Of a DNA stretch of 64,000 bases, positions 3,847 through 7,561 are shown one piece after another; within the stretch, counting starts at the first letter, position 1, and each line of letters begins with the position of its first letter. Origin of the DNA: Octopus vulgaris (lineage: Eukaryota); contig OX597827.1 in assembly GCA_951406725.2 (NCBI GenBank), forward strand, positions 68,200,001 through 68,264,000. The letters run 5' to 3'. The notes beneath the pieces are model-generated. The model was not told the DNA's origin. It saw only the letters and a list, made by a program, of their open reading frames with translations, and ran no database searches. The position numbers and the translations under genes were made by a program.

Positions 3847-4809
3847 GCATATATGATGCGGTACGGATATCTAAAATGCAAGCAACATAAACATTCTCCG
3901 TACCGTTCACGCTCAAACAGACAGCATGGTCGGCCAGGCAGTGTACAGCATCAACAGATATTATATAATTGTGATAAAACCAAGGTTATGTGGGCAATCA
4001 CCCAGTACCAGAAAAGTTATCACTTGTCCGTGACAGGTAAGTTGAACCAGGAGACCAAGGAACTGATGTCTGCTTCTCGTTGTGGTAATAAAGACAAAGA
4101 TGATGGCGTGTACAGGGATGAACACATAAATTCAAAAAGGAAGCACATTCGTCGTCCGGAGCCGAGACATGGCCGAGGAAACAGGGTCAATCGACGACCA
4201 GATAACAAACGACACAGTAGAAAAAATAACTCGCTAAGAAAACGCTCGAAGCGGGAAGCATTTCACAGACCCCGTTCAAAAATCAAAACGACCACCACCA
4301 CGGGGGAAAAGTTTTTAGCGAGAGACAAACGATCTGTCTCGTCAAATTTATCCCCATTGCTTTCTTCTAATTTACCTTTGACTTCCAAGCTGGCTTCTCT
4401 CTTGGTGGCGACTTTCTCTAAATTTCGAGCCACTAGAGGTCGCTGGAAACGGAATACGGCAAATGGTTATTCGATCGTATCCCTGACTGAATACAATAAC
4501 AATACGGTATCAAATAATACCAAAGCGATCGCTAATGACACGTTATTAGCCCGTGAGATATTATTAAATGATGTTATTGCTGAATCAGATACACCATCGT
4601 CTAAAACCACAGCGGCGAAAGAAACAGTATCAGAGGGTGGAGTACGGACTAGTAAAACTGCAGGACACCACACGGCAAAAGTCTTAGCGCCGTCAAGGTT
4701 AAACACAATTAGCTCAGAAAACACATTATCGCAATCATCACAAACACCCAAACCAATTTCTAACACATCCTCCACTCATACTTCTAATGTAACAACCACA
4801 ACAACTATA

Positions 4810-4840
<31 letters not shown>

Positions 4841-5769
4841 CACGTAAATTTGTACAGTTTCAAAACTCACAAACAAAACAGAAATTAAAAACAACACCAA
4901 CAACAACAACAACAAAATCAATATCAACAAGTAGCAATACATGGCTGGAATATTCTGATGACCATGTACGGACGTTGAGTGACGAGCAGCCATGGAACGA
5001 GTCTTGGCTGGAGGAAGCGGTTTCGAATGGTGAAGTTGAACGCAAAGGCAGTGAAGGTAGACAAGAGCAGCGGCCATATTTTCACTCGTTCGCTTCTCAA
5101 ACATTGTCGTCGTCGTCGTCGTCATCGTCATCGTCATCATCATCATCATCATCATCGTCATCTTCATCGTCATCATCGCCATCATCATCGTCGTCTACAG
5201 CGTATGTATCTTCGTCGTCGTGGTCATCCCTTTCACCAACTTTTACGGCAGTGTCTTCTTCTTCTTCTTCTTCTTCTTCTTCTTCTTCTTCTTCTTCTTC
5301 TTCTTCTTCTTCTCCATCGTCATCTGGATTTCGGACGAACCCGGACGACAGCAGTGGTCCTGCTGTCCACGGTTCCACCGATGGTGACCAAATTAGCAAG
5401 CGTAGTGTGATCAACTTCAATAGTGCCACACACATTGTAAATAATAATAATAATAATAACAACAACAACAACAGCAGCAGCACACACACCAACCACCATC
5501 AAAACAAAAACATAAATCATAGCAATACCAGTAATAACTACAACAACGATACAACCACCATTGCTACAATTCTTACTACAGCCGCTACTAATGCTACTAC
5601 TTTTAAAGAAGAATTTCAGTTGGATAGTAGGAGCAGCAGTAGTAATAGTAGTAGTAGTAGTAGTAGTAAGTCTAATACAGATGAGATTTTCGAACACGTT
5701 TGTAATGGTAAGGAGAGATGTAATAGTAACCCAAGCACTAGCAACAACAATTGTAACTGTAACCTTAGC

Positions 5770-5807
<38 letters not shown>

Positions 5808-6762
5808 CGAGAGAGTTAGAGCAAGTAATAGCAGTAACTTATGTAAGTGCACCGCTATTAACGACGCCAAAGTAAACAACAGCAACACTGTAAGTAGTAG
5901 TAGTAGTAGTAGTAGTAGCAGTAGCAGCAGCAGTATTAAGGGTAATAGAGCTATTGCAAACGGGCTGGACTTCGAAACAGGTGTTTATACGACAAAAACG
6001 GTTCGAACGAGACCGTTGCGAAGAGGTACGCTGACTAGAAGCTACAGTCAAAGACAGAAGGAAAGTACCAGCCCGATTGTTGTAGGTGGTAGTAGAAGTA
6101 GTGGTGGTGGTGGTGGTAGTAGTAAGAGGAACAGTAGGGATAGCAATAGCAATTACTCTGATAAGTCAATAACCAATAATAATAATAATAATAGTAATAA
6201 TAATAATAATAATAATAATGCTAATTATAACGAGAAAGATCATGTCAAGGGCGAGACAGAGCTGACATCGAACCCTAAACAAGAACCCGTAGGGTCGAGA
6301 TTAGGCTCTTCCTTGCCGCCATTGCATTCATCATCATCGACATCATCATCATCATCATCTTCATCCTCAGAATCATCATCGTCATATATAAGAACTTTTG
6401 CTCCATCATCATCATCATCATCATCAATTGATACGTCATCATCATCATCGTCATCGTCACCAATCACACCGCCACATTCATCTTCAACACGTGAAAAACT
6501 GGCTTTCACATCGGTGCCTCCTCACCTCACATCCGACACAGCTCTTTCGACGACGGCCACTGTGGCCACAGGTAAAGAAACGACTCAGTCAGAATCGACG
6601 ACGACGACGAAGACAACGACGGCAACAACCATAACGACAGACGACGAAGACAGAAGACCCGCAATCGCTACATTAGCGACACCAGTTTTGGGTACAAACG
6701 ACCAAGACGTAAATGACGTCATACACTCAGACAGTGACATTAACAATAATAATTATAATTAT

Positions 6763-6793
<31 letters not shown>

Positions 6794-7561
6794 ATAATAA
6801 TAATAATGATAATAATAATAATAATAACCGAAACTTAAGGTCTTCTGTACCTTTACGTTACACCGAAACCGTTCCAGCTGGGATAATAAAGTTGGGAGCC
6901 ATTTCAAAACTTGAAGAATTAACCTCATATTATACTAACCAAAATGACATCAACTATTTAAAAGATGGCGAATATAATGTAATTCACCTAAAGAAACTCT
7001 TTATCAAATTGCTCAGTCAATCAGAAACGGCGACACACTCGTCGCCGAAGTTGCCAACAGTGACTTATTCACCGTTCTCTTTCACGATAAAACCAAATAT
7101 CATCCAGTGGACAGAGCGTCCGCAACCCCCGCAAACGTCGGCGCCTCATTCCAGGTGGTGGAACCAACCGCATACGATTTCCTATCTGCTGTCGGTCATC
7201 AGATTCGGACTTCGCCCGAAAGAGCTGCAGCATCGTACGCGGCAAAATTATCTGCGGGAGACGGCGCGCCGTTTCAAAGAGACAGATCCTCTTACGTACA
7301 ACGACTCGCCGCCGGTGCATCAACGCAAACGCCGCTCGCCCGTAGTGAACAAGGCGAACGGCTGGGGACAAATGTTTAAAAAGAAATTGATACGCTGGCG
7401 TTTGTTAGATTCGGGATACAGCAACCGCATCCCCGTGGAAGAGCAGAGAGCTACTCTTACACTCGCCTTCCGGATGTGGAACGAAGTGATTCCCTTAAAC
7501 TTTGTGGAGGATATTACCAGTCACGTGAAGGATGTCGATATACATATTGCATTTGGTCAAG
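3847..7561 (+). CDS. MMP21: Giant internal coding exon of an MMP21-like matrix metalloproteinase: peptidoglycan-binding-like prodomain, cysteine switch, ~1,076-aa low-complexity insert, furin site and start of the M10 catalytic domain
   Basis: Open frame 3832-7575. Acceptor tttgttttatttgcag|GCA at 3846/3847 (phase 0); donor CAAG|gtaagt at 7561/7562 (phase 1). N-terminal YMMRYGYL...AITQYQKSYHLSVTGKLNQETKELMSASRCGNKD fits an MMP propeptide with cysteine switch. C-terminal RKRR...KKLIRWRLLDSGYSNRIPVEEQRATLTLAFRMWNEVIPLNFVEDITSHVKDVDIHIAFGQG matches the MMP21-type catalytic N-terminus as I recall it (WRLL..LAFRMWSEV.PL.F.ED..DI..FG.G). The MMP call is firm; MMP21 orthology is by recognition only. 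Signal-peptide, HExxH and hemopexin exons are not seen. Confidence 0.88.

Follow-up and report, generated by a model that had tools for sequence, protein, structure and literature searches.

A long low-complexity linker between cysteine switch and furin site in an MMP21 gene of Octopus vulgaris

On contig OX597827.1 of the Octopus vulgaris assembly GCA_951406725.2, positions 68,200,001 to 68,264,000 (64,000 nucleotides, the whole stretch analysed, here called the window) hold part of an MMP21-like protease gene in which the cysteine switch and the furin activation site stand 1,076 residues apart. This locus raises the question of whether such a stretch is really coding and transcribed, how far it departs from the linkers of other MMP21 proteins, and what would become of it when the enzyme matures.

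The six-exon gene and its MMP21 identity

The switch SRCGNKD (4075-4095; positions are those of the window) and the motif RKRR (7324-7335) are joined by 1,076 codons (4096-7323) with no stop, compared with 30–170 stops in the other five frames. The one long frame of the window runs from 3829 to 7575. Inside it, exon 2 is delimited by the splice signals ttgcag/GCA at 3847 and AAG/gtaagt at 7561, and contigs from sequencing runs begin at 3847 and leave the genomic sequence at 7562. In 176,439 bp of flanking DNA no stop-free run exceeded 422 codons, and the insert itself, shuffled by base 300 times, gave at most 193. These controls indicate that the open frame at 4096-7323 did not arise by chance. 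The preliminary description, which saw one uninterrupted frame on a single exon from SRCGNKD to RKRR, was borne out by the lack of stops, the splice signals and the spliced contigs. The parts of exon 2 and the rest of the gene are:

3847..7561, + strand: exon 2 of the six-exon MMP21 gene, 3,715 nt, phase 0 to phase 1
3850..4074, + strand: folded part of the prodomain with PG-binding-like helices, aligning with mollusc MMP21s
4075..4095, + strand: cysteine switch SRCGNKD, the same or nearly the same motif as in mollusc-type homologues
4096..4455, + strand: first part of the spacer, basic and partly conserved, with RSKR (4243), RDKR (4321) and RWKR (4441)
4357-4455, + strand: conserved island within the spacer start, kept in Argonauta (P0160)
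4453..7152, + strand: low-complexity core of ~900 aa, with trinucleotide microsatellites read as Ser/Asn/Thr, predicted to be disordered
7153..7323, + strand: ancestral mollusc propeptide segment of 57 aa, a predicted helix, starting with RWWN
7324..7335, + strand: canonical furin activation site RKRR, at the position of R-x-K/R-R in homologues
7336..7561, + strand: start of the mature enzyme and first part of the catalytic domain (Pfam Peptidase_M10, E 6e-5)
7562..64000, + strand: first part of the 179.9-kb intron
C14:68165074-68165256, outside the window, 38.6 kb upstream: exon 1
G000:C14:68387461-68395507, outside the window, 179.9 kb downstream: zinc-binding exon and three hemopexin exons

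The exon phases join, and the six exons in frame give an open model of 1,652 aa (184 kDa), of which the portion after RKRR makes up 428 aa and 50.0 kDa. A six-frame motif scan detected no downstream exons inside the window; they were located ~180 kb away. The intron that splits the catalytic domain measures 179.9 kb, against 1–3.4 kb for the last three introns. A second genomic copy of exon 2 was rejected, with one match only in the 2.8-Gb genome. The N-terminus encoded by exon 1 is hydrophobic, as judged by eye, and 88% identical to that of Argonauta over 61 aa. Exon 1 (L056:1408-1683) has in addition an in-frame upstream ATG and an (ACT)n microsatellite 5' of the start common to Argonauta, and encodes an RSKR motif before the prodomain. 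Intron 1 carries, at 705-1070 and 2282-2767, tandem copies of a 185–186-bp repeat, which we take to be SINE-like.

For the subfamily, the available text of PMC2656525 lists a furin site, an insertion after the switch, a unique catalytic-domain cysteine and the lack of a hinge, and all of these are present here as sequence features. The insertion between switch and furin site is 1,076 aa long, and the furin motif R-x-K/R-R is conserved in position. The subfamily-specific cysteine is Cys81 of the mature model, aligned by eye with that of the named homologues. The catalytic exon ends in VQKIYG and the next one begins with VCRGAF, leading without a hinge into the hemopexin part (PF00045 match). 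The switch has the form SRCGNKD, common in mollusc-type homologues and different from the consensus PRCGxPD. Upstream of it, Pfam PG_binding_1 matched at 3982-4068 with an E value of 4e-4, under its curated cut-off. The zinc site HEIGHVLGLNH and the Met-turn are intact in the exon at C14:68387461, where PF00413 scores 88 bits, and the mature part is 90% identical to that of Argonauta hians.

In a catalytic-domain tree of 33 rows, the octopus protein clades with named MMP21s with 99/99 support, apart from 11 same-genome paralogue rows; the alignment is short, the bootstrap unsettled, and the rows include no named non-MMP21 outgroup. The tree, the intact zinc site and the hemopexin exons support the MMP21 identity proposed in the preliminary description. 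A fold search returned only known MMP folds. Among nine loci of paralogous MMPs scanned in the same genome, two had cysteine-switch exons, and their frames close 25–30 codons past the switch. Two clusters of other MMP catalytic exons, likely tandem paralogues, were seen at G000:C16 4.57-4.77 Mb and C25 9.63-9.75 Mb (L002-L021).

Linker length in relatives and composition of the insert

We gathered 147 proteins, as 50%-identity representatives, a sample that favours divergent linkers. Both anchors were recognised in 115 of them; the 32 without a recognisable switch, mostly fragments, were dropped. The distance from the switch to the first catalytic strand had a median of 136 aa (n = 115), with eight proteins above 300 aa, four above 500 aa, and only the octopus protein and P0002 above 800 aa. 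The octopus linker is the longest of the 115 and has roughly double the length of the longest from outside the cephalopods. When the linker was measured up to the last furin motif, rows with an RCGN-type switch (n = 64) had a median of 120 aa and a next-longest value of 331 aa, so that the octopus length does lie far beyond its invertebrate homologues, as first proposed. Rows of the PRCGV type (n = 36) had a median of 67.5 and a maximum of 530 aa.

Vertebrate MMP21 (XMMP), as far as the available texts of PMC2656525 and bioRxiv 2024.10.13.618030 describe it, shares with the octopus protein the cysteine switch, an insertion ahead of the furin site, the unique catalytic-domain cysteine, HExxHxxGxxH, the Met-turn, the missing hinge, the hemopexin domain, an N-terminus that in octopus looks signal-like by eye, and a mature form of 50 kDa, in octopus a predicted mass. 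It differs in the length of the insertion (20–44 vs 1,076 aa), in the switch (PRCGxPD vs SRCGNKD) and in lacking the three extra furin-type linker sites of octopus. The earlier statement that this linker normally measures tens of residues therefore holds for canonical vertebrate MMP21, with 20–44 aa given in the available text of PMC2656525, but not for the invertebrate-type proteins, nor for chordate models of 250–530 aa. The latter were coho salmon P0036 (530 aa), hagfish P0075 (524 aa), Rhinoraja P0055 (383 aa), sockeye P0040 (280 aa), lamprey P0073 (278 aa) and the tunicate Styela P0133 (251 aa). Like octopus, they have a low-complexity expansion at the same site, but they are gene predictions only, and at half the octopus length or less. 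Their expansions are independent, tandem-repeat or Thr-rich, and built of unrelated repeats. The longest ones consist of 13–29-aa tandem repeats, whereas octopus has microsatellite homopolymers, and three of the six have no internal furin motifs.

Mollusc MMP21-like proteins (Mya P0010, Biomphalaria P0027, Nucella P0025, Liolophura P0163) have in common with octopus an RCGNxD switch, a linker lying wholly on one exon (as seen in single-exon fragments), and the order of a variable spacer, a conserved helical segment and R-x-K/R-R. Their spacer is ~10x shorter, and they have W-K/R-R-S where the cephalopod clade has RWWN. The last 57 residues of the octopus insert align with the segment common to these and other molluscs. 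Thus, the low-complexity insert of 1,076 aa put forward in the preliminary description stood as to length and composition, except for its last 57 residues, which are a conserved mollusc segment. This segment is a helix, of moderate confidence, in both AlphaFold models, and the loop before it is of low confidence even in a short-linker homologue (residues 138-183).

Among the cephalopods, P0002 (an ENA record) has the same one-exon architecture and a 928-aa spacer, which cannot be aligned to the octopus spacer except at its ends. In a tree, it groups with the octopus gene, Argonauta and the transcript-derived P0004 (SH-aLRT 100), as sister branch of the two octopods, and we infer that it comes from a squid or cuttlefish. 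Homology of the island at 4357-4455 to the P0002 spacer was rejected, the best local score being matched by 449 and 752 of 1,000 shuffles. The Argonauta hians gene is present as two models with consecutive accessions, GAB1603962.1 and GAB1603961.1 (P0160 and P0003), of which one ends in the spacer and the other begins in it. Both spacer ends are homologous to those of octopus; unlike octopus, the gene is split into a partial hypothetical protein and an N-truncated MMP21-like protein. The homologues with names included no record named as Nautilus or vampire squid, which limits how closely the expansion can be dated.

From these comparisons of sequence, the MMP21 linker is a recurrent and tolerant site of expansion, with octopus as an extreme variant. 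A search of open-access full text, with subscription journals and supplements outside its scope, retrieved no paper on octopus or cephalopod MMP21; by title, the open-access literature on mollusc MMP21 in left-right patterning had nothing on the octopus gene. The available text of an echinoderm review (PMC8467561) mentions no such insert. The long-spacer MMP21 of octopus is apparently unreported.

The insert is rich in Ser (22%), Asn (12%) and Thr (11%), and its P+T+S content of 38% is mostly poly-Ser. All 15 perfect microsatellites of at least 18 bp in the insert are trinucleotide repeats; elsewhere in the window 6 of 127 are. Tandem peptide repeats were rejected as its source, since only microsatellite families were found (best peptide autocorrelation 0.2). 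The indels listed in the contigs, which show conservation of the frame for two organisms, were +3, +9, -1/-2 side by side (net -3), +12, +12 and +6, all net multiples of three. All 15 runs encode Ser, Asn or Thr. For 14 of them another phase would also be open, giving Ile, Leu, Phe, Val, His or Arg, and in no case is that phase used. The naive probability of this avoidance, 8e-6, is overstated, as runs are neighbours and repeats may be seeded from existing codons. In the contig of the second organism, 8 of 12 substitutions at 4096-4791 were non-synonymous, compared with 69–74% expected without selection, a comparison resting on these 12 substitutions; the prodomain part of the same contig had none. 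On this small sample, frame and polar composition are constrained as far as the sequences can tell, and the amino-acid sequence is not detectably so. Selection seems to act not on a given sequence but on a spacer that stays open, soluble and removable.

By our crude charge-hydropathy index, 70% of the windows were disordered, which makes the suspected disorder of the insert likely. The many NxS/T sequons, earlier read as a sign of glycosylation, did not hold up as such: the insert has 21, fewer than the mean of 41.6 in composition shuffles, and the relative P0002 has nine, and sequon enrichment was rejected. All six cysteines of the insert were found within 50 residues (5701-5850), as two CxC pairs among poly-Ser runs.

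Furin-type sites and the likely fate of the spacer

In the preliminary description only RKRR was noted as a cleavage site. We found three further R-x-K/R-R motifs inside the insert (RSKR, RDKR and RWKR), 50–116 residues past the switch, where 0.40 were expected and 6 of 1,000 shuffles reached three. P0002 has six internal sites, with overlapping ones counted (1.16 expected, 0 of 1,000 shuffles), at different places from those of octopus. Argonauta P0160 keeps RSKR, RWKR and the nearly invariant island of ~33 aa before RWKR; RDKR is not kept. Further downstream, 14 of 23 mollusc-type rows have an upstream W-K/R-R-S/T/N motif, replaced by RWWN in all four rows of the cephalopod clade, suggesting that processing was rewired. 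Furin-type sites thus stand on both sides of the spacer, and it is likely excised by convertases at both ends, which would leave a normal enzyme of 428 aa and 50 kDa. A fragment cut out between RWKR and RKRR would have 961 aa (103 kDa before glycans).

We consider it probable that the locus is an intact, transcribed octopod MMP21 whose loop grew by slippage to 1,076 residues, and that the spacer, predicted to be disordered, is cut out by furin-type convertases during secretion to yield a 50-kDa enzyme. An already flexible propeptide loop would have grown in cephalopods by in-frame trinucleotide slippage. The precursor would enter the secretory pathway, with the prodomain still able to place its cysteine on the zinc despite the long loop between them. 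The prodomain would then be released by cuts at RSKR/RWKR and the mature enzyme by cleavage at RKRR, leaving a by-product of ~960 aa. From secretion onwards, these steps are deduced from motifs and knowledge of the family.

Is the spacer pure filler? Against this stand the ~1,000 aa kept in both cephalopod branches that have a full exon, the island nearly invariant between octopus and Argonauta, and the rewired sites. The similar length and the island hint at more than tolerated filler. The excised ~100-kDa fragment could, for example, be a functional secreted product of mucin-like or matrix type, made one-to-one with the protease. The convertase sites on both sides, the S+T content of 33% and the similar length in two branches with unalignable spacers are consistent with such a polyprotein. 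Its core shows no sequence conservation, its substitutions look neutral and its sequons are not enriched, and the sites of P0002 would release different fragments, so that we regard a functional fragment as unlikely, if worth keeping in mind. Equally tentative is a more specific form, in which coleoid pro-MMP21 would be a staged polyprotein: a cut near the switch would activate an enzyme that carries a polar tail of 100 kDa, and cleavage at RKRR would then yield a diffusible protease of 50 kDa plus a matrix product of mucin-like type, with length and polarity selected despite complete sequence turnover between lineages.

The preliminary description favoured a lasting tether. In such a reading the spacer would be secreted still attached, either to the zymogen or to an active form that had been cut at the upstream sites alone, altering diffusion, latency or matrix binding. 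Until cleavage at RKRR, the helical segment and RWWN do remain attached to the enzyme, and the available text of bioRxiv 2024.10.13.618030 reports Xenopus Mmp21 as a diffusible signal for which size matters. RKRR, however, is canonical and at the family position, and the available text of PMC2656525 has MMP21 activated by furin inside the cell. The predicted mature mass of 50.0 kDa also equals that of mature Xenopus Mmp21, given as 50 kDa in the same bioRxiv text. With furin-type sites bracketing the spacer and a normal mature enzyme predicted, a retained tether is doubtful and, in our view, improbable.

Transcription of exon 2 and what the long linker means

The exon stretch or part of it is contained in 20 of 24 listed sequencing runs, none of which is on record as RNA. 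Four runs, from four studies and two organisms, were compared to the exon; three of them carried an automatic guess of RNA and one no label, and their contig ends at splice sites point to RNA. In all four, a contig starts exactly at 3847, with 191–519 unmatched letters ahead of it, and extends 400–700 nt into the insert. In three, a contig goes from within the insert through RKRR to the donor; in the fourth it ends at 7515. Two of the donor-reaching contigs continue, for 1,120 and 1,139 unmatched letters. By length alone, the unmatched ends agree with the flanking coding sequence of the model (183 nt upstream, 1,061 nt downstream). The intron at 3700-3834 had a depth of 0 in the four runs. At 7275, the assembly has C and all four runs have G (Phe to Leu), either a private allele or an assembly error.

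Exon 2 is transcribed, and both ends of the insert are included in spliced contigs. No single contig covers the whole insert; contigs break at repeats and leave the central repeat runs uncovered. Contig depth in the unique central pieces was similar in magnitude to that at the ends, and the four runs listed no exon-skipping joints, in contigs that drop rare variants. That the central region is retained and not spliced out, as the single-exon reading assumed, agrees with these contigs.

A consensus donor CAG/GTAAGT (4034-4042, cut at 4036/4037) lies inside exon 2 ahead of the switch and shares its phase with the real donor at 7561. A transcript spliced there would lack the switch and the spacer as well as part of the catalytic domain. 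One could suppose that the working transcript loses the central region by such an internal splice, the long form being a by-product, and rare forms would indeed be lost from contigs. The contigs of all four runs pass 4036 into the insert, the central depth is comparable to that of the ends, and a frame constraint over 3.2 kb implies translation, all of which makes this very improbable. That the region is an assembly artefact, or a non-coding microsatellite tract open by chance, might be suspected from its repeats and the central runs lacking contig cover, but is largely refuted already by collinear contig matches from four studies and two organisms, by the independent P0002 record with its one-exon architecture and by the failed chance controls.

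No link was found to the left-right patterning raised in the preliminary description; nothing here bears on patterning. Should the spacer merely be cut away, the mature enzyme would have an ordinary biology. The octopus model explains the split annotation of the Argonauta gene and supplies a corrected gene model of 1,652 aa. For the family, it suggests that the MMP21 linker has expanded independently in several animal lineages, and possible effects on activation can be tested there. It also illustrates how far a cysteine-switch zymogen may part inhibitor from enzyme, with the prodomain made ~1,100 residues before the zinc domain.
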